Below, one piece after another: positions 30,186-37,308 of a DNA stretch of 64,000 nucleotides. The position numbers and the translations under genes were made by a program. The notes under the pieces were generated by a model. The model worked only from the letters and a program-made list of their open reading frames with translations. It did not search any database and had not been told where the DNA came from. Within the stretch, counting starts at the first letter, position 1; the number at the start of each line of letters is the position of its first letter. Source of the stretch: an uncultured Candidatus Rokubacteria bacterium (GTDB taxonomy: Bacteria; Methylomirabilota; Methylomirabilia; Rokubacteriales; CSP1-6); assembly GCA_963771355.1 (NCBI GenBank), contig CAVYTA010000006.1, forward strand, positions 1,728,001 to 1,792,000, written 5' to 3'.

Positions 30186-31595
30186 TTACCCCGGCGCCGG
30201 AGGCACCGCCAGCGGAGAAGCGAGTGTCACCTCGAGGATACGGCGCGTATCGTCGGTAACCGGTGCCGCCCGACCCCGGCGGAGCCCCGCGACCCAGATG
30301 ATCTCGCCATCGGCCTCGAGCAGCGGGATGCGCGAGCGCTCCCAGCGCGGGATGCCCGCGTCGATGAGGAAGGTCTTGAGCCGCCGCTCTCCCGGTCCCC
30401 CCCACGGCAGGAAGCGATCGCCGACACGCCGCGCCCGCACGGTGAGCCGGGCCGGGACGCGATCGGCATCGAACTCGGCACGGGCGGGATCGTGGGCGGG
30501 CATCCAGCCCCCGGGACGGACGAAGCAGCGCGCGGAGAGCCGCGTGCCCAGCTCGGGCAGCGGCAGCTCGCCCGGCACCTGCCAGGCGCGCTCGCGGAGA
30601 TCCGCGCCGGGCGCGGCGCCCACGCGCACCCACCGGCCGCTGCGCTCGCAGCGCACCCGCCCGAGCCGGACGGCCCGCGGCCGGCCCCCGGCGAGCACGA
30701 GGCGCAGCGCGCGCTCGCCGGCCGCGCGCTGCGCGCCGCCGCCCCCGAGGCCCGCCGCCGCCGCGCGCAGGACCTCGGCGGCCAGCTCGCCGGGCAGGCG
30801 CTCGAGCTCGTGGGCGGGCAGGACGATGGCGCCGGACACGGCGCGGCCGAGCGCGGCCACGATCGCCCGCGCCTCCGTCTCGAGCGCCGACTCCAGGGCG
30901 CGGGCCCGCGCGGCGCCGCGGGTGAGCCGCTCCACCGCGTCGATGTCCCAGGCCGCCACTAGGAACGGCAGGACGTCGTGGCGGATCCGGTTGCGCAGGA
31001 AGCGCGGATCGGCATTCGAAGCGTCATCACGCCACCCAATTCCGCGAGCCAAGAGGTGCGCCTCGATGAGATGCCGGCGCGTCTCGAGCAGCGGCCGGAT
31101 ATAGGGGCCCCGCACGGGCGCGATGCCGCCGAGACCGCGCGGGCCGGCCCCGTCGAGCAGCCGCATCACCACCGTCTCTGCCTGGTCGTCGGCGGTGTGC
31201 CCGGTGGCCACGCAGTCGGCGCCGGTGGCGGCGGCGACGCGCCGGAAGGCGGCATAGCGGGCGCGGCGCGCCGCGGCCTCGAGCCCGTCCCAGGCGCCGC
31301 CCGGCCCGGGCCGGGCGATCTCCACCCGCTCAACGCGCAGCGGAATGCCCCGGGCGCAGCACAGGTCCGTCACGAAGGCGGCGTCCGCCGCCGACTCGGG
31401 GCGGAGACCGTGGTCGACGTGCACGGCGTGGAGCGTGAGACCGAGCGAGGGAGCCAGCGTGTGGAGGACGTCGAGGAGCGCGACGGAGTCGGCGCCGCCG
31501 GAGACCGCCGCCAAGACAGCTTCGCCGCCGCGGAGCATCCCGTGGCGGCGAATGGTGGCCAGACAGCGAGCGGGCAGGCTAGTGGCGGTGGTCAC
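30186..31595 (-). CDS. tilS: tRNA(Ile)-lysidine synthetase
   Basis: PP-loop AVSGGADS, HVDHGLR, GHTADDQAET, RNRIRH and TilS C-terminal domain; start GTG 31595 inferred. Confidence 0.93.
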   Translation of the reverse strand: MTTATSLPARCLATIRRHGMLRGGEAVLAAVSGGADSVALLDVLHTLAPSLGLTLHAVHVDHGLRPESAADAAFVTDLCCARGIPLRVERVEIARPGPGGAWDGLEAAARRARYAAFRRVAAATGADCVATGHTADDQAETVVMRLLDGAGPRGLGGIAPVRGPYIRPLLETRRHLIEAHLLARGIGWRDDASNADPRFLRNRIRHDVLPFLVAAWDIDAVERLTRGAARARALESALETEARAIVAALGRAVSGAIVLPAHELERLPGELAAEVLRAAAAGLGGGGAQRAAGERALRLVLAGGRPRAVRLGRVRCERSGRWVRVGAAPGADLRERAWQVPGELPLPELGTRLSARCFVRPGGWMPAHDPARAEFDADRVPARLTVRARRVGDRFLPWGGPGERRLKTFLIDAGIPRWERSRIPLLEADGEIIWVAGLRRGRAAPVTDDTRRILEVTLASPLAVPPAPG

Positions 31596-32298
31596 ATTCC
31601 GACTGCAGCCCCACCCAGACCTCGCCGTCCTCGAAGTATTCCTTCTTCCAGATGGGCACCGTCTCCTTGAGCGTGTCGATGGCGAACCGGCAGGCGTCGA
31701 AGCCCTCGCCCCGATGGGCGGTGGAGACCGCGATGAGCACGCTCGACTCGCCGATCTCGAGCCGCCCCACGCGGTGGACAATGGCCAGCCGCCGGATGCC
31801 GGGATGGCGCTGACGCGCCGCCGCCGCGATCTCCCGCATCTTGGCCACCGCCATCGGCGCGTGGGCCTCGTACTCGAGGAACTTCACCCGGCGCCCGCCC
31901 GTCTGGTCGCGCACCACGCCCGAGAAGAGCACGACGGCGCCGGCGCCGGGGTCCTCGACCGCGGCGACCAGGGCCGGCTCGGACAGGGGCCCGGCCACCA
32001 GGTCGACCAGATCGTCGGTCGGGATCGAAGGGGGCGGGCCCGCGGGGACGGAGGATCCGCCGCTCACGGGGGGAAAGAGGCACAGCTCCTCCCCGGACCG
32101 GAGCGGGCGCTCGGGTCCGACGTAGTCATTGTCCACCGCGAACAACGTGAAAGGGCGGTACGCCGAGAGCGAGGGGAACCGGCTCGTCACCGCCTCCCAC
32201 GCCGTCTCGACCGTACCGCCCTCGGGAAGATCCAGCTCGACGCGGTCACGCCCGGCCGCCTCGCGATACCGGGCGAACAACCGCACCTGCACCTTCAT
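31579..32298 (-). CDS. moaX: Fused molybdopterin synthase MoaD-MoaE (MoaX-like)
   Basis: MKVQVRLFA...PPVSGG (MoaD), a linker, then GAVVLFSGVVRD, LEYEAH, HRVG and PIWKKE (MoaE). Confidence 0.9.
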   Translation of the reverse strand: MKVQVRLFARYREAAGRDRVELDLPEGGTVETAWEAVTSRFPSLSAYRPFTLFAVDNDYVGPERPLRSGEELCLFPPVSGGSSVPAGPPPSIPTDDLVDLVAGPLSEPALVAAVEDPGAGAVVLFSGVVRDQTGGRRVKFLEYEAHAPMAVAKMREIAAAARQRHPGIRRLAIVHRVGRLEIGESSVLIAVSTAHRGEGFDACRFAIDTLKETVPIWKKEYFEDGEVWVGLQSECDHRH

Positions 32299-32315: not shown

Positions 32316-32642
32316 CTAGAACTGGTGAGAGGAGCCGCAGCCGCAGGACGACTTCACGTTGGGGTTGTTGATCGCGAAGCCCGCCCCCATCATGTTGTTG
32401 TCCACGTAGTCGATCTCGCTGCCCGCGACATACTGCGCGCTCTTGGCGTCCACGAATACCTTGACGCCCTGCGACTCGACCACGTTGTCGTCTTCCGCCG
32501 CCGCATCGTCCCAGCCCAGTTCGTAGGACATCCCCGAGCAGCCGCCGCCGACAATCCGGATGCGCAGCCCCCACTCGGGCTTGCCCTCTTCGAGCCGGAG
32601 CTCGGAGATCTTCTTCGCGGCCGTTTCGGTCAATGTGACCAT
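32316..32642 (-). CDS. A-type Fe-S cluster carrier (HesB/IscA/ErpA family)
   Basis: GGGCSGMSY and NPN..SSCGCGSS motifs. Confidence 0.93.
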   Translation of the reverse strand: MVTLTETAAKKISELRLEEGKPEWGLRIRIVGGGCSGMSYELGWDDAAAEDDNVVESQGVKVFVDAKSAQYVAGSEIDYVDNNMMGAGFAINNPNVKSSCGCGSSHQF

Positions 32643-32717: not shown

Positions 32718-33443
32718 TCAGAGCACCCCGCGGGCAGGCATCAGGGTCATCTCCTCGAGGGCCGCATTGGCGTCCAGGGTGGCCATGAAGAGGGCGGCGT
32801 CGGCGACCTGGGCCGGGGTGATCATGAGCGCTCGGTCGGGGGCGCCCGGGTTGCCGTCCCAGAGCGGCGTGTCGACCGCCCCCGCGGAGAGCACGCCCAC
32901 GCGCACTCCCGTGCCACGCAGCTCCTCGGTGAGGACCCGGCCCAGCCCGAGCAGTCCGTACTTGGAGGCGGTATACGCGGCGCTGCCCGGGAGGGTCCGC
33001 CCGGTGACCATGGAGCTGATCAGGATGAGGGTGCCCCGGCCCTGGGCCACCATGGTGGGGAGCACGGCGCGGCAGCAGAGATAGGCGCCCCGCAGGTTCA
33101 CCGCCATCATCTCGTCCCAGTCGGCGGGCCGGCTTTCGCTCACCGGGGCGAACACCGCCACCCCCGCCGCGGCCACGAGCACGTCCACCCGCCCGAGCTC
33201 CGCCCGAGTCCGAGCCACCAGCGCGGCCACCGCGGGCTCCTGGCGGACGTCGGTGGGGACGGCCAGGGCTCGCCCGCCGGCCGCCTCCACCGCCGCCACC
33301 GCGCTGCCGAGCTGCCGCGTCGAGCGGGCGGCCAACGTCACCGCCGCCCCCTCGCGCGCGAAGGTCTCGGCCACCGCCCGGCCGATGCCCCGTCCCGCGC
33401 CGGTGACGAGGGCGACCTGACCGGCCAGGCGCTGGTCACTCAC
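32718..33443 (-). CDS. SDR family oxidoreductase (possible sepiapterin-reductase-like)
   Basis: TGAGRGIG and YTASK motifs; GTG start overlaps the folE stop. Confidence 0.85.
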
Positions 33444-34018
33444 AGCATCAGCCCGCCGCGCGACTTGATCAGCTCCATGAACTCGGCCCGCGTCTCCGGC
33501 CGGTCGCGGAAGGCGCCGAGCATGGCCGAGGTCACCGCCTTGGAGTTCTGCTTCTCCACACCCCGCATGAGCATGCAGAGGTGCAGGCCCTCGATCACCA
33601 CCGCCACCCCGCGCGGCTGCAGCACGTCGTTGATGGTGTGCGCGATCTGGGTGGTGAGGCGCTCCTGCACCTGAAGGCGCCGGCTGAACATCTCCACCAG
33701 CCGCGGAATCTTGGACAGCCCCACGATCTTCCGCGACGGCATGTAGGCGATGTGCGCCTTGCCGAAGAATGGGAGCATGTGGTGCTCGCACATCGAGAAG
33801 TAGTCGATGTCCTTCACCACCACCATCTCGTCGTAATCCTCGGTGAAGAGCGCGGAGTTGAGCACCTCCTCCACGTTCTGGTGATAGCCCGAGGTCAGGT
33901 ACTCGTAAGCCTTGGCCACCCGGGCGGGGGTCCTCTCCAGGCCCTCGCGGCTCGGGTCCTCGCCGAGCTCCTTCAGGAAGTCGCGGATCAGGCGCTCCAT
34001 CGCGTTCAGGTCGCTCAC
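33440..34018 (-). CDS. folE: GTP cyclohydrolase I
   Basis: [36 protein letters not shown] and HLCMLMRGV motifs. Confidence 0.96.
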
Positions 34019-34440
34019 CGGGGGCTCCTTGTGGCCTCGCCGCAGTACTCGAACGAGTTGTTGGCGGTCTCGATCACCGCCACGCGCTCCAGGTGGCCGG
34101 GCGGCAGCGCCTCGGCCAGCCAGTCCCAGAACGTGCGGGCCAGGTTCTCGCCGGTGGTGATCACGCCCTCGAGCTCGGGCACCGCGCCGGAGAGATCGTA
34201 GTGGTCCACGCGCTCGAGGAGCACGCGGCGCACGGCGGCATCGAGGGCGCCGAGATCGGCGGCCATCCCCGTGACGGGATCGAGGGCGCCCGCCAGCGTC
34301 ACCTCCACCACGTAGTTGTGCCCGTGCGGGCGGTAGCACTGGCCATACACCCGCTCGTTCTCGGCCGGAGACAAGGCCGCGCTGGCCAGCTGGTGCCCGG
34401 CGCTGAAGTGATAAGCGCGCGTGAGCCGGTAGCCGCTCAT
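34015..34440 (-). CDS. 6-pyruvoyl-tetrahydropterin synthase / QueD family protein (with Cys)
   Basis: [21 protein letters not shown] and IET motifs. Confidence 0.9.
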
Positions 34441-34862
34441 GGCCCGAGGTACTCCACGTGGAAGGTGGGGTCCTCCCAGAGCCGCAGGCGGTAGAGACGA
34501 TCCCCTCCGAGCTTGGGGACGAGCAGGTCCCAGAGCGCGCGGACGAGGTTCTCGGTGGTCGGGATGAGACCCCCGGCGAAGAGCGGGTCCGCATTGAGAT
34601 CGGCATGATCGAAGCGCTGGATCACGGTGTCGCCCACCAGCCGCTTGAGCTCGGCCAGGTCCATCACCATGCCGGTGATGGGATCCACCGACCCCACCAG
34701 GGTCACGTCCAGCACGTAGTTGTGCCCGTGGGTGACCGTGAGCGAGCCGAAGGCGCGCGCGTTCTCTTCCGCGCTCCACCGCGGCTGCCAGTAGCGGTGG
34801 GCGGCGGAGAATGTGAACTTCCGCGTCACGTAGACAGGGCCGGGGGTCATGGACGGGGTCAT
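34437..34862 (-). CDS. 6-pyruvoyl-tetrahydropterin synthase / QueD family protein (no Cys before HGH)
   Basis: [23 protein letters not shown] and PTTENL motifs. Confidence 0.88.
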
Positions 34863-35935
34863 GGGAGCACGCAATATGATCGTACCGTATCGAGGAAGCG
34901 CTGCGCGACCCTCTCCACCGCATAGTCCGCCACCCGATGCCGGGCGGCGGCGCCGAGGGCCCGCGCCCGCTCGGGGCTCCGCAGGAGGCCCGCCAGCGCC
35001 CCCGCCAGGGCCGGGGGGTCCCGCGGCGGGACGAGCACACCCGTTTCTCCCTCCCGCACCACCTCGGGGACGGCGGCGGCGCGGCAGGCCACCACCGGCA
35101 GGCCCGCCGCCATGGCCTCGAGGAAGACGATGCCGAACCCTTCCTGCACCGTGGGGAGACAGAAGCAGTCGGCGTTCACGTACTCCTCCGCCAGCTGCTC
35201 CCAGGTCACGTCGCCCAGGAGGGTCACCGTCCCGTCGAGCGCAAGCTCGGCGTGGAGCCGCGCGAGCGCCTCCCACTCCGGGCCCTTCCCGACCACGCGG
35301 ACGCGCAGCCCGGGGATGGCCGATCGCAATCGTGCCGCGGCCTGCAGGAGATCCGGAAAGCGCTTCCGCGCGTAGGTCCGGCCCACCGCGAGCACGGTCG
35401 GGCCCGCGCGCGGCCGGCGCGGGGCGGCGGCGAGGCGCGCCTGCCACGCCGCGAGATCGATGGACTCGGGCACCACGCCGATGCGGGAGGCCGGCACGCC
35501 GTACACGTCCTGGGCCACCGCGGCGGAGTAGTGGCTCGGCACCAGGACCGCGTCGGCGCGCGCGGTGTTGCGTTGCTCCCAGCGCGCCTGCACGGAGAGG
35601 AGGGCCCGCACGAGGCCGCGCTCGTTGCGGAGCTCGTCCGCGATGATGCCCTTGAGCAGGACCACGAAGGGCTGGCGGCCTCGTCGGCGCGCCCAGAGAA
35701 AGCCGTCGAGATCGTACCCGACGACGAGGTCCGCATCCCGGGGCGGGGCCGCCGCCACCCCCGCGTTGTAGAGCCAGCGGTCGAAGGTGTGGAAGCGGGT
35801 GCGGGTGCGCAGGGGGCGCAGCTCCACCGTGTGCCCCCACGCCTCGAGACCGGCGCGGAAGTTGGCGAGCGAGACGTAGGTGCCGCTCCCCTCGCGCGGA
35901 TTGAGCGGCGTGGAGGTGAGGACCGCGATGCGCAC
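34859..35935 (-). CDS. Glycosyltransferase family 4 (GT-B)
   Basis: VGR..RK and EGFGIVFLEAMAAGLPVV motifs; ATGA overlap with the PTPS gene; start GTG 35935. Confidence 0.92.
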   Translation of the reverse strand: MRIAVLTSTPLNPREGSGTYVSLANFRAGLEAWGHTVELRPLRTRTRFHTFDRWLYNAGVAAAPPRDADLVVGYDLDGFLWARRRGRQPFVVLLKGIIADELRNERGLVRALLSVQARWEQRNTARADAVLVPSHYSAAVAQDVYGVPASRIGVVPESIDLAAWQARLAAAPRRPRAGPTVLAVGRTYARKRFPDLLQAAARLRSAIPGLRVRVVGKGPEWEALARLHAELALDGTVTLLGDVTWEQLAEEYVNADCFCLPTVQEGFGIVFLEAMAAGLPVVACRAAAVPEVVREGETGVLVPPRDPPALAGALAGLLRSPERARALGAAARHRVADYAVERVAQRFLDTVRSYCVLP

Positions 35936-35964: not shown

Positions 35965-36750
35965 CTAGCGGCCCTGGAAGCGGGGGGCGCGCTTCTCGAG
36001 GAACGCGGTGGTGCCTTCCTTGTAGTCCTGGCTGTTGAAGGTCTCGAGCCCGAGCTCGGCGAGGTCGGCGCGATGCTGGTCGGTGATGCCCTCGAAGATC
36101 GCGCGCACCTGGGTCTTGGTGCCGCGGATGGACAGGGGCGCGTTGCTCGCCACCTTGCCGAGGTAGTCGAGCGTGTGCGCCTCGAGCTGGGCGGCGGGCA
36201 CCAGACGCTGGATGAGGCCGATGCGCAGCGCCTCCTCCGCCTCCACCGTGCGCGCGGAGTACAGGATGTCCTTGGCGTAGGCCGGTCCCACGAGGTCCAC
36301 CAGCTGGTGGACGGGATCGAGCCCGTAGATGATGGACAGCCGCGCGGCGGGGATGCCGAACTTCGAGCCCTCGGCGGCGAAGCGGAGGTCGCACGCCATG
36401 GCCAGCGCCATCGCGCCCCCCATGCAGTAGCCGAAGATCATCGCCACCGTGGGCTTGGGGCAGTTGCGGATGGAGCGGTAGGCGATCTCGGTCTGCTGGT
36501 TGTAGTGCAGCGCGGTCTCGGTGTCCTTGCGGTTCTCCTTGAACTCGGAGATGTCGGCGCCGGAGGCGAAGGCGTCTGTCCCCGCGCCCCGAAAGACGAT
36601 CGCCCGCACGGAGTCGTCTTTGGCGAGCACCTGTGTCTCCTGACCGATCGCGGTCCACATCGCCAGGCTGACCGCGTTGCGCATCTTCGGGCGGTTGATG
36701 GTGACGGTGGCGATACCGTCCGCGCGCTCGACCAGGATGTGATCGCTCAT
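35965..36750 (-). CDS. Enoyl-CoA hydratase/isomerase family protein
   Basis: INRPKMRNA, AFASGADISE, GYCMGG, CDLR and AFLEKRAPRFQGR motifs. Confidence 0.92.
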   Translation of the reverse strand: MSDHILVERADGIATVTINRPKMRNAVSLAMWTAIGQETQVLAKDDSVRAIVFRGAGTDAFASGADISEFKENRKDTETALHYNQQTEIAYRSIRNCPKPTVAMIFGYCMGGAMALAMACDLRFAAEGSKFGIPAARLSIIYGLDPVHQLVDLVGPAYAKDILYSARTVEAEEALRIGLIQRLVPAAQLEAHTLDYLGKVASNAPLSIRGTKTQVRAIFEGITDQHRADLAELGLETFNSQDYKEGTTAFLEKRAPRFQGR

Positions 36751-36853: not shown

Positions 36854-36929
36854 TGGTGGCGGCGGGAGGACTCGAACCTCCGACACGGGGCTTATGAGAC
36901 CCCTGCTCTGCCACCTGAGCTACGCCGCC
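36854..36929 (-). tRNA. tRNA-Met (CAT), elongator type
   Basis: GGCGGCGTAGCTCAGGTGGCAGAGCAGGGGTCTCATAAGCCCCGTGTCGGAGGTTCGAGTCCTCCCGCCGCCACCA: cloverleaf, CAT anticodon, encoded CCA, G1-C72 pair. Confidence 0.93.
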
Positions 36930-36938
36930 AAAATGGCG

Positions 36939-37013
36939 TGGACACGAAAAACCCGTTTGTTATAATCCCGCCGAACGGAGTCCAACAGTAACGACTCTCA
37001 CCTGTCAAGTCAA
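36939..37013. promoter_or_regulatory. Face-to-face sigma-70-type promoters
   Basis: Plus strand TGGACA-16bp-TATAAT with extended TG (36939-36966); minus strand TTGACT(37013)-17bp-TACTGT(36985) pointing to the tRNA. Confidence 0.6.
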
Positions 37014-37041: not shown

Positions 37042-37308
37042 ATGGCATGTAGCGCTCGGCCATGGACCGACGACGAGCAGACGATCTACCTGCGCCAGAT
37101 CGACGACCCCGACGTCGTCGAAGACGACGATGATGATGATGACGAGGACGACGATCTCGAGGACGACGATGCCCTCGACGACGACGACGAGGAGGACGAC
37201 GACGATCTCGAGGATGACGACGACGATCTCGAGGACGACGACCTCGACGACGACGAGGATGATGACGACGACGACGAGGACGAGGCGGACGACGCTGAGG
37301 ACGAGTAG
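37042..37308 (+). CDS. Small extremely acidic (poly-Asp/Glu) protein
   Basis: RBS GGAGGAG; 88 aa with about 60 D/E; near-consensus promoter upstream. Confidence 0.7.
   Translation: MACSARPWTDDEQTIYLRQIDDPDVVEDDDDDDDEDDDLEDDDALDDDDEEDDDDLEDDDDDLEDDDLDDDEDDDDDDEDEADDAEDE

Follow-up and report, generated by a model that had tools for sequence, protein, structure and literature searches.

A candidate operon for reduced pterin glycoside synthesis in a Rokubacteria-like bacterium

Introduction

In Synechococcus sp. PCC 7942, a BH4-alpha-glucoside is produced by a pathway of four activities (FolE, dual-domain PTPS-II, sepiapterin reductase and BGluT; PDB 5ZE7/5ZER), whilst Chlorobium tepidum makes tepidopterin, an L-threo-BH4 N-acetylglucosaminide, with a sepiapterin reductase (2BD0) and the glycosyltransferase CtPGT. 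A dual-domain PTPS of Synechococcus is reportedly the subject of work by Kong and colleagues in 2006. The Synechococcus dual-domain PTPS-II enters the present analysis by description only (PMC5041015). Biopterin-type enzymes (PTPS-II) are distinguished by a CxxxxxHGH motif (PMC5041015) and QueD enzymes (PTPS-I) by the shorter CxxxHGH (PMC5041015; PMC9894224). Pterin glycosides are described from cyanobacteria, Chlorobium and Sulfolobus, with their function unsettled (PMC3546692; PMC5683033), and biopterin is said to be rare among bacteria (PMC13259868).

Here we describe a five-gene operon which, judging from its sequence, probably makes a reduced pterin glycoside, that is, a sugar-bearing tetrahydrobiopterin-type pterin, from GTP; we put the probability of this at roughly 0.55. 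In a search of the open-licence literature, neither the operon itself nor the occurrence of pterin glycosides in Rokubacteria or Acidobacteria was the subject of any paper found.

Organisation of the locus

The window, the whole 64,000-nucleotide stretch of DNA that was analysed, comes from a Rokubacteria-like soil bacterium of the Methylomirabilota with a genome that is 99.8% complete. The minus strand carries all five ORFs, in the order GT4, PTPS_A, PTPS_B, FolE, SDR (Table 1). A sequence-only reading had proposed that the five are joined by four 4-bp stop/start overlaps, and this is confirmed (ATGA, ATGA, GTGA and GTGA in turn); its family labels are likewise upheld by the models listed in the table. 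As a rough genome-wide estimate from crude ORF calling, such an overlap is possible for 14% of closely spaced genes on one strand (160 of 1177 neighbours), a rate at which four consecutive overlaps would arise by chance with a probability of ~3e-4 if they are independent.

Table 1. Features of the pterin gene cluster and its neighbours, with positions in the window
Feature	Coordinates	Strand	Remarks
GT4 (GT-B fold) glycosyltransferase	34859..35935	-	358 aa, GTG start; PF00534/PF13692
PTPS_A	34437..34862	-	141 aa; PF01242; counterpart of dual-domain PTPS N-half
PTPS_B	34015..34440	-	141 aa; PF01242; counterpart of dual-domain PTPS C-half
FolE, GTP cyclohydrolase I	33440..34018	-	192 aa; PF01227; TIGR00063 262.6 bits, cut-off 181.6
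Classical SDR	32718..33443	-	241 aa; PF00106; S144, Y157, K161, R40
Enoyl-CoA hydratase (ECH), flanking	35965..36750	-	Pfam/NCBIfam; 29 bp upstream of the five genes
HesB/ErpA-type Fe-S carrier, flanking	32316..32642	-	Pfam/NCBIfam; 75-bp gap downstream of SDR
MoaD-MoaE fusion (molybdopterin synthase), flanking	31579..32298	-	Pfam/NCBIfam; 17-bp gap from hesB/erpA

The same-strand run extends beyond the five genes, with ECH upstream and hesB/erpA and the moaD-moaE fusion downstream. ECH is syntenic across the Rokubacteriales but is missing near the cluster in family f11, and for that reason it probably lies outside the pathway. A promoter and terminator scan found no site on this strand upstream of the cluster, an Rfam scan of the window returned one tRNA and no riboswitch, and PTPS_B had no match in a plasmid collection at E<=1e-12. 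RNA runs (4 of the 24 listed) gave short contigs only, mostly less than 95% alike, which may derive from DNA. One genome flagged as unpublished (G190) is excluded from every count given here.

A biopterin-type PTPS pair

The sequence-only reading listed PTPS twice. Both proteins do belong to PF01242, but the two copies are not equivalent: each is the counterpart of a different half of a dual-domain enzyme, and PTPS_A is without the catalytic Cys. When compared with fused dual-domain PTPS proteins, PTPS_A matches best on the N-half and PTPS_B on the C-half, each in 106 of 120 cases. For both, the best match is rat/human PTPS (98 and 91 bits), with E. coli QueD at only 44 bits, and both miss the 89.25-bit cut-off of the QueD model TIGR03367 (60.0 and 60.9 bits). 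Further evidence comes from a quick tree of few columns, where all copies of the pair split from ten canonical QueD-type rows (SH-aLRT 91), and from the clustering of the pair with folE and a sepiapterin-reductase-like SDR. In these comparisons, the pair groups with biopterin-type PTPS and apart from QueD.

Alignment to rat/human PTPS places the Zn-His triad, the Asp-His pair and two Glu residues in both subunits of 28/28 relatives; we presume that these have the roles familiar from other PTPS enzymes, and an Asp sits at the position presumed to be that of Asp54 in E. coli QueD. PTPS_A retains all of these, with Leu41 in place of the catalytic Cys (the 11-residue motif stretch contains no Cys at all), and the site is Leu or Val in every one of the 28 relatives. 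That PTPS_A is a pseudogene was ruled out, all other site residues being invariant. PTPS_B retains Cys35 with CxxxHGH spacing (CYRPHGH) on a mammalian-like scaffold, its Cys loop being two residues shorter than that of PTPS-II; the CxxxxxHGH signature is absent from both proteins. As this signature occurs in both halves of 108 of the 120 fused relatives, the ancestral state looks PTPS-II-like. Complex prediction for PTPS_A with PTPS_B, run on single sequences with one copy each, gave a score of 0.02, which is weighed neither for nor against their association.

A Cys-less subunit and a shortened Cys loop might alter the chemistry, in which case the pterin made by the operon would still be glycosylated but would differ from biopterin in its side chain. 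The uniform Leu/Val substitution alongside intact Zn ligands and both Glu, the missing loop residues of PTPS_B, and the lineages that have a glycosyltransferase and the pair with no adjacent SDR would all fit this, and cyanopterin shows that bacterial pterin glycosides can be non-biopterin (PMC3546692). We nevertheless think it improbable, given that almost every Rokubacteriales locus has, next after folE, a Chlorobium-type SDR with both substrate-binding residues, and given the PTPS-II motifs of the fused relatives; in addition, folB is present, so a FolB bypass is not needed.

Queuosine synthesis

The sequence-only reading had also cited the lack of queC, queE and queF. None of the three has a match within the window, but the argument fails, since queE-queC, queF, tgt and queA are present elsewhere in the same genome. 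Moreover, PTPS_A and PTPS_B are the only COG0720 genes of this genome, which has no other QueD. Here and in 5/7 same-genus genomes, queE-queC has no adjacent queD and the pair provides the sole PF01242 matches; the YhhQ salvage transporter has no match in the genome either. Together with the PTPS-I motif of PTPS_B (CxxxHGH; PMC5041015; PMC9894224), these findings would suit a scheme in which the pair is simply the organism's QueD, making CPH4 for queuosine with FolE, and the SDR and GT4 are unrelated neighbours. This is highly unlikely. Of 29 relatives that carry the pair, 16 have no queC match, 11 of these being at least 90% complete. The pair is also kept in five genomes that have a canonical QueD as well, including copies with CxxxHGH spacing, and both the tree and structure matches put it among biopterin-type PTPS.

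A double function is a separate matter from the main claim. The genome has queuosine genes but no other QueD, and the pair may therefore also supply CPH4 for queuosine in this genus, a suggestion that we make tentatively.

The SDR

In Chlorobium sepiapterin reductase, Phe99 and Trp196 are described as binding substrate alongside a Ser-Tyr-Lys triad (PMC7520308). Through a profile of folE-adjacent SDRs, F98 and W195 of the SDR align to F99/W196 of 2BD0, and S144, Y157, K161, F98 and W195 are invariant in 30/30 Rokubacteriales SDRs. 2BD0 ranks first with this mixed profile, which may contain closer kin of 2BD0, tenth with a Rokubacteriales-only SDR profile (168 vs 205 bits), twentieth with the C-half of the SDR and outside the top 60 with the single sequence. 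The order PTPS-folE-SDR also occurs in 19 of the best 30 loci of another phylum. No SDR was found near the pair in family f11 or in GT2-type Acidobacteria, and in GT4-type Acidobacteria the SDR beside the pair is generic, without the Trp motif.

The glycosyltransferase

GT4 reached no NCBIfam cut-off. Its model (pLDDT 89) is closest in fold to MshA, sucrose-phosphate synthase and BshA, and it has the GT-B fold and GT4-type donor domain in common with the BGluT/PgtA class. GT4 is neither a close relative nor an orthologue of cyanobacterial BGluT, the match being confined to residues 168-333 at a score below those of MshA/PimA/BshA-type enzymes. BGluT is absent from the 33 GT4 profile matches at E<=1e-15 and from the best 50 structural matches listed; a structural likeness to BGluT may still lie beyond these 50. 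Pterin glycosylation by GT4 is therefore deduced from gene context, not from homology to a tested enzyme, and GT4 is a candidate for this role from outside the BGluT family.

GT4 lies directly upstream of the pair in 19/19 loci of family f1 and in 11/11 f11 loci reaching that far, families that belong to two orders of the Methylomirabilota, and within the phylum is found only in these families (86/95 and 11/12, respectively). Adjacency within the Rokubacteriales is weak evidence by itself, because synteny there is generally conserved; the f11 loci are without ECH, SDR, hesB and moaDE as neighbours, yet GT4 is retained. Outside the phylum, 6/14 GT4 orthologues lie directly behind phhB, an arrangement found in two other phyla. 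Within a core clade of seven orthologues (SH-aLRT 99), six do so; in the genome of the remaining one, PTPS-PTPS-folE-SDR is found at another locus. The five phhB-linked Nitrospirota genomes are kin and represent about one event; four of them also have queE upstream. None of the 14 orthologues is within ~6 kb of PTPS, folE or SDR. All six usable Acidobacteriota genomes with GT4 have the tandem PTPS pair, and the alternative GT2 is present in none; the other 144 genomes in this comparison include 40 with a PTPS-II-like match. GT4 also co-occurs with the pair in one Planctomycetota genome. No GT4-PTPS fusion was seen in the 11 of 150 representatives scanned, the sole fusion being with a DCC1-like domain. 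The link between the GT4 family and pterin genes spans three phyla, which supports the pathway reading.

A GT2 occupies the GT4 slot in all nine loci of families f2-f4 and also in Acidobacteria; among non-Rokubacteria loci it does so in 67 of 74. It resembles the membrane enzymes HpnB/CruG of lipid glycosylation. A role for this GT2 as a Chlorobium-type beta-GlcNAc transferase was considered and dropped, CtPGT being described as GT-1/AviGT4-like (PMC5683033).

These comparisons also bear on whether the pterin is glycosylated at all. The operon might make an unglycosylated tetrahydrobiopterin-type pterin, with GT4 a mere neighbour acting on a lipid, an envelope polymer or another small molecule. 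Its nearest relatives in sequence or fold (MshA, PimA/PimB, BshA and sucrose-phosphate synthase) and the HpnB/CruG likeness of the GT2 in its slot would be in keeping with this, as would the equal synteny of ECH, hesB and moaDE with GT4 inside the Rokubacteriales and the 8/14 outside-phylum orthologues with no pterin gene detected alongside. We consider it unlikely, if less so than an altered side chain: GT4 keeps its place by the pair in f11 despite the change of other neighbours, follows phhB in two other phyla, and accompanies the pair in the Acidobacteriota and Planctomycetota genomes, whilst no user of free BH4 was found, PhhA occurring in 0/41 genomes and NO synthase being absent from the organism's own genome.

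Proposed pathway and its significance

In the proposed route to a glycosylated reduced pterin, FolE, encoded by the only folE that tblastn detects in the genome, converts GTP to dihydroneopterin triphosphate by established chemistry, and this product also supplies folate synthesis via folB and folK, both of which are present elsewhere. A PTPS-III/FolB-bypass role for the pair was ruled out, the ExxHGH motif being absent and folB and folK present. PTPS_A and PTPS_B, acting as a two-gene dual-domain PTPS, would then form 6-pyruvoyl-tetrahydropterin, PTPS_B giving the catalytic Cys and PTPS_A giving structure and the Asp-His pair of the neighbouring subunit. The NADPH-type SDR would then carry out side-chain reduction, probably as the Chlorobium enzyme does, and GT4, from its gene context, is predicted to move a sugar from a nucleotide-sugar onto the pterin side chain. 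As neither an aromatic amino acid hydroxylase nor an NO synthase was found, the pathway probably ends with the glycoside, serving as a redox or protective metabolite or as cofactor of some enzyme. The glycosylated reduced pterin put forward in the sequence-only reading is supported in part, by the biopterin-type PTPS, the Chlorobium-type SDR residues and the linkage of GT4 to pterin genes; the que argument fails, and GT4 is no BGluT orthologue.

If this is true, widespread uncultured soil bacteria make a pterin glycoside, which would suggest that such compounds do more than protect against light; the pteridine glycosyltransferases would gain a new family; and the CxxxHGH rule for QueD annotation would misfile part of the biopterin-type clade. 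The missing queD would be a hole that a biopterin-type PTPS might fill, and the five genes would form a cassette directly testable in E. coli. More speculatively, and at long odds, abundant soil bacteria that are not phototrophs, among them Rokubacteriales and Acidobacteriota, might make pterin glycosides through two undescribed, interchangeable transferase families (GT4 and membrane GT2) and an obligate two-subunit PTPS with one Cys-less subunit, which in this genus would also replace QueD, splitting flux between biopterin and queuosine.

Comparison with known systems

QueD (PTPS-I) resembles the pair in the CxxxHGH spacing of PTPS_B, and the remaining queuosine genes are all present in a genome whose only COG0720 genes are the pair; the pair differs in falling below the TIGR03367 cut-off, in its separate branch, in lying apart from queC/queE and in being kept in queC-less genomes. 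With the Chlorobium group, the locus shares the PTPS-folE-SDR order, and its SDR has, like 2BD0, EE..L.P..G.L as its C-terminal tail and counterparts of F99/W196; C. tepidum has a single-domain PTPS in place of a pair, and CtPGT, GT-1/AviGT4-like as described, can be set beside GT4 by description only (PMC5683033). The same four activities as in Synechococcus are predicted here, with a GT-B/GT4 transferase in both and a PTPS pair that matches dual-domain PTPS proteins half by half. Unlike in Synechococcus, the PTPS is encoded by two genes, one product being without the catalytic Cys and neither having CxxxxxHGH; GT4 matches BGluT in the donor-binding half only (41 bits); and all the genes lie in one operon, in a host that is no cyanobacterium.

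The operon and its genomic setting

Re-reading of the window confirmed in every detail the arrangement described in the sequence-only reading: five open reading frames, encoding the glycosyltransferase GT4, two PTPS proteins (PTPS_A and PTPS_B, hereafter the pair), FolE and an SDR, with four 4-bp overlaps between them. Family searches bore out its labels for all five proteins. By a crude count, such an overlap is possible at 160 of 1177 close same-strand neighbour pairs in the genome carrying the window (5.5 Mb, 70% GC, 99.8% complete), and at this rate four in succession indicate a coupled operon. Among loci that bear a name, the closest to this one belong to Rokubacteria/Methylomirabilota. 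The operon is real and the pathway directly testable: we give a probability of about 0.55 to a joint reading in which the pair carries out biopterin-type (PTPS-II) chemistry, the SDR acts as reductase and GT4 glycosylates the pterin. The gene order, the overlaps, the protein families, the residues and the distributions are observed, and these three activities are inferred.

Features of the window and of related loci
Feature	Location	Strand	Remark
GT4	35935-34859	minus
PTPS_A	34862-34437	minus
PTPS_B	34440-34015	minus
folE	34018-33440	minus	without the insertion seen in relatives
SDR	33443-32718	minus
hesB	32316-32642	minus
moaD-moaE fusion (moaDE)	31579-32298	minus
Enoyl-CoA hydratase gene (ECH)	35965-36750	minus
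tRNA-Met	36854-36929	minus	just upstream of ECH
Sigma-70 promoter	36939-36966	plus	near-consensus; directed away from cluster
Short ORF	37042-37308		chiefly Asp and Glu codons
queE-queC operon	G000:C5:987081-988433		same genome, outside window; without queD
MoCF_biosynth protein and Mrp/NUBPL ATPase genes	L266:3546-4058; L269:9063-9926		after cluster in family f11
folE with insertion	L126:3568-5196; L228:1271-2869; L123, L149, L178, L198, L237, L246, L250		about 340 aa, in frame, just before CEHH motif
TlpA/ResA-like redoxin gene	L057:2272-2802	divergent	upstream of GT2-PTPS-PTPS-folE

Molybdopterin and Fe-S genes follow the cluster both here and in f11, a family of another order, the genes differing between the two. 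The whole cluster also occurs, at 88-99% identity, in a record labelled archaeon (L004), a label that is probably wrong. At one locus (L142, from a 95% complete genome, G038) the SDR gene lies directly after PTPS_A, with PTPS_B and folE missing from the cluster.

The PTPS pair

Rat and human PTPS are nearest to both PTPS_A and PTPS_B (98 and 91 bits), with E. coli QueD far off at 44 bits. For comparison we used the class motifs (PTPS-II, QueD-type CxxxHGH) set out in section 5 of PMC5041015, the portion drawn on here. PTPS_A has Leu at the catalytic Cys site, whilst PTPS_B keeps the Cys in a CxxxHGH spacing two residues shorter than that of PTPS-II. Across 29 loci, one per genome (one incomplete for PTPS_A, another without PTPS_B), PTPS_A carries Leu at this site in 26 and Val in two, and PTPS_B has Cys in 28; neither protein shows any change in the zinc histidines, the Asp-His pair or the two glutamates.

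A search for longer relatives gave 186 proteins, with 120 listed PF01242 matches of about 270 aa that are fused proteins, their sources by name being Chloroflexota, Nitrospirota and Acidimicrobiia. Among these 120, PTPS_A favoured the N-half in 106 and PTPS_B the C-half in 106; CxxxxxHGH is found in both halves of 108, and the N-half Cys is missing in 10. In a quick tree of 93 rows and few columns, upstream pair copies group with N-halves and the single PTPS of the Candidatus Kapaibacterium phylum, downstream copies fall among C-halves and ten canonical QueD-type rows stand apart (SH-aLRT 91). From these sequences we read PTPS_A and PTPS_B as a split dual-domain PTPS. The two proteins would bind one another, and PTPS-II chemistry by the A/B enzyme is probable.

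A further possibility is that the pair also serves queuosine synthesis. The sequence-only reading had noted that queC, queE and queF are absent from the window, but this argument fails, as all three lie elsewhere in the genome, together with tgt and queA. The pair are the only PF01242 genes there, a pattern shared by five of seven same-genus genomes, and the pair may therefore supply CPH4 for queuosine in this organism. It cannot, however, be QueD alone, because 16 of 29 pair-bearing relatives keep it and give no match to queC, among them 11 genomes of 90% completeness or more, and five genomes (G019, G025, G184, G201 and G289) keep it in addition to a canonical QueD adjoining queC or queE. 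Both pair copies have CxxxHGH in G184 and G289 despite the separate QueD. The genome also contains folB and folK, so there is no need for a FolB bypass, and gave no match to YhhQ. In G011, G019 and G025 the queC locus reads queD-queE-queC. A third COG0720 gene, with the PTPS-I/III hybrid motif CExxHGH, occurs at loci L134-L138 in genus g23 of family f4 and in G014, where there is no queC match.

FolE and the SDR

FolE chemistry is established for the family. The insertion in relatives' folE genes begins with Cys, ends in His-Asn and gives a LAGLIDADG match and a sub-threshold intein match.

The SDR has the Ser-Tyr-Lys triad. Its F98 and W195, unchanged across all 30 Rokubacteriales SDRs compared, align to F99 and W196 of Chlorobium sepiapterin reductase, described in the part of a review used here as indispensable for binding substrate (PMC7520308); W195 is also invariant in 20 of 20 SDRs adjoining folE or PTPS in several phyla. 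The rank of the Chlorobium structure (2BD0) varies with the query: first with a mixed profile (249 bits), tenth with a Rokubacteriales-only profile and outside the best 60 with a single sequence. In the Kapaibacterium phylum, where 114 of 121 genomes have a match, 19 of the best 30 loci have the order PTPS-folE-SDR. Reduction of the sepiapterin-reductase type is probable for this SDR.

The glycosyltransferase

The GT4 model has a confident GT-B fold (pLDDT 89), with MshA, sucrose-phosphate synthase, BshA and PimA as best sequence and fold matches. Similarity to cyanobacterial BH4 glucosyltransferase (BGluT) does not extend beyond residues 168-333 (41 bits), the donor-binding half, and for this reason we do not file GT4 as BGluT; the acceptor is bound mainly by the N-half, according to the portion of PMC4133829 used.

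The co-conservation of GT4 with the pair and folE, synteny included, was upheld in the families f1 and f11. Upstream DNA is available at 19 f1 genome loci, and at all 19 GT4 stands before the pair; it does so at 49 of 60 f1 metagenome loci (eight end too early, two are distant matches). Synteny in f1 alone is weak evidence, since ECH, hesB and moaDE keep their places in that family just as well. Stronger evidence comes from f11, where every one of the 11 loci extending upstream of the pair reads GT4-PTPS-PTPS-folE, and ECH, SDR, hesB and moaDE are absent within up to 7 kb on each side. Within the phylum (151 genomes searched) GT4 was found in 86 of 95 f1 and 11 of 12 f11 genomes, and in no other family.

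Outside Methylomirabilota the GT4 profile, whose matches show a gap in E between 1e-80 and 1e-55, found 2/201, 7/251, 1/251 and 5/251 genomes in four phyla (one of the seven, unpublished, was left out). None of the 14 orthologues examined has PTPS, folE or SDR nearby; six (five Nitrospirota-phylum genomes and G263) have phhB, for pterin-4a-carbinolamine dehydratase, directly before GT4. These six form a core clade with a Planctomycetota protein, f1 and f11 (SH-aLRT 99), and PTPS-PTPS-folE-SDR lies on a different contig of the Planctomycetota genome. All six usable GT4-bearing Acidobacteriota have a tandem PTPS pair, against a PTPS-II-like match in 40 of 144 other genomes. The Fisher value for this comparison overstates the association, because five of these GT4-bearing genomes are closely related. 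It is mainly because two different pterin genes neighbour GT4 in separate phyla that we believe its acceptor to be a pterin, and on balance we favour pterin glycosylation as its role. In four of five Nitrospirota-phylum loci (L388, L389, L391, L392), phhB-GT4 is preceded at a distance of 2-5 kb by a queE-like gene in the same orientation.

In families f2-f4 the slot of GT4 is occupied by an HpnB/CruG-like glycosyltransferase (GT2) at 9 of 9 loci. Of 74 non-Rokubacteria loci, for the most part from Acidobacteriota, 67 have this GT2 ahead of the pair (the rest include two incomplete loci and four from other phyla without GT2), and in the reverse search PTPS adjoins GT2 in 13 of its best 30 Acidobacteriota loci. 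The six usable GT4-bearing Acidobacteriota have no GT2 match at E<=1e-30. The divergent redoxin gene accompanies most acidobacterial loci (cluster in 68 of 74 loci).

Use of the product and comparison with known pathways

No aromatic amino acid hydroxylase was found among 41 genomes searched and no NO synthase in the genome carrying the window, which has phhB away from the cluster. Such a gene content would suit a reduced pterin which some partner oxidises and recycles, or which is stored as a glycoside. Our search of the open-licence literature found no paper on this operon. Biopterin in a non-phototroph is not unprecedented, as BH4 from gut Actinobacteria is reported in the section of PMC5227711 consulted.

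The pair differs from PTPS-II in lacking the CxxxxxHGH motif, and GT4 from BGluT in sharing similarity with it over the donor-binding half only. The cluster as a whole is predicted to work like the pterin-glycoside pathways of Synechococcus and Chlorobium, as far as these are set out in the extracts used of PMC3546692, PMC5683033 and PMC5041015.
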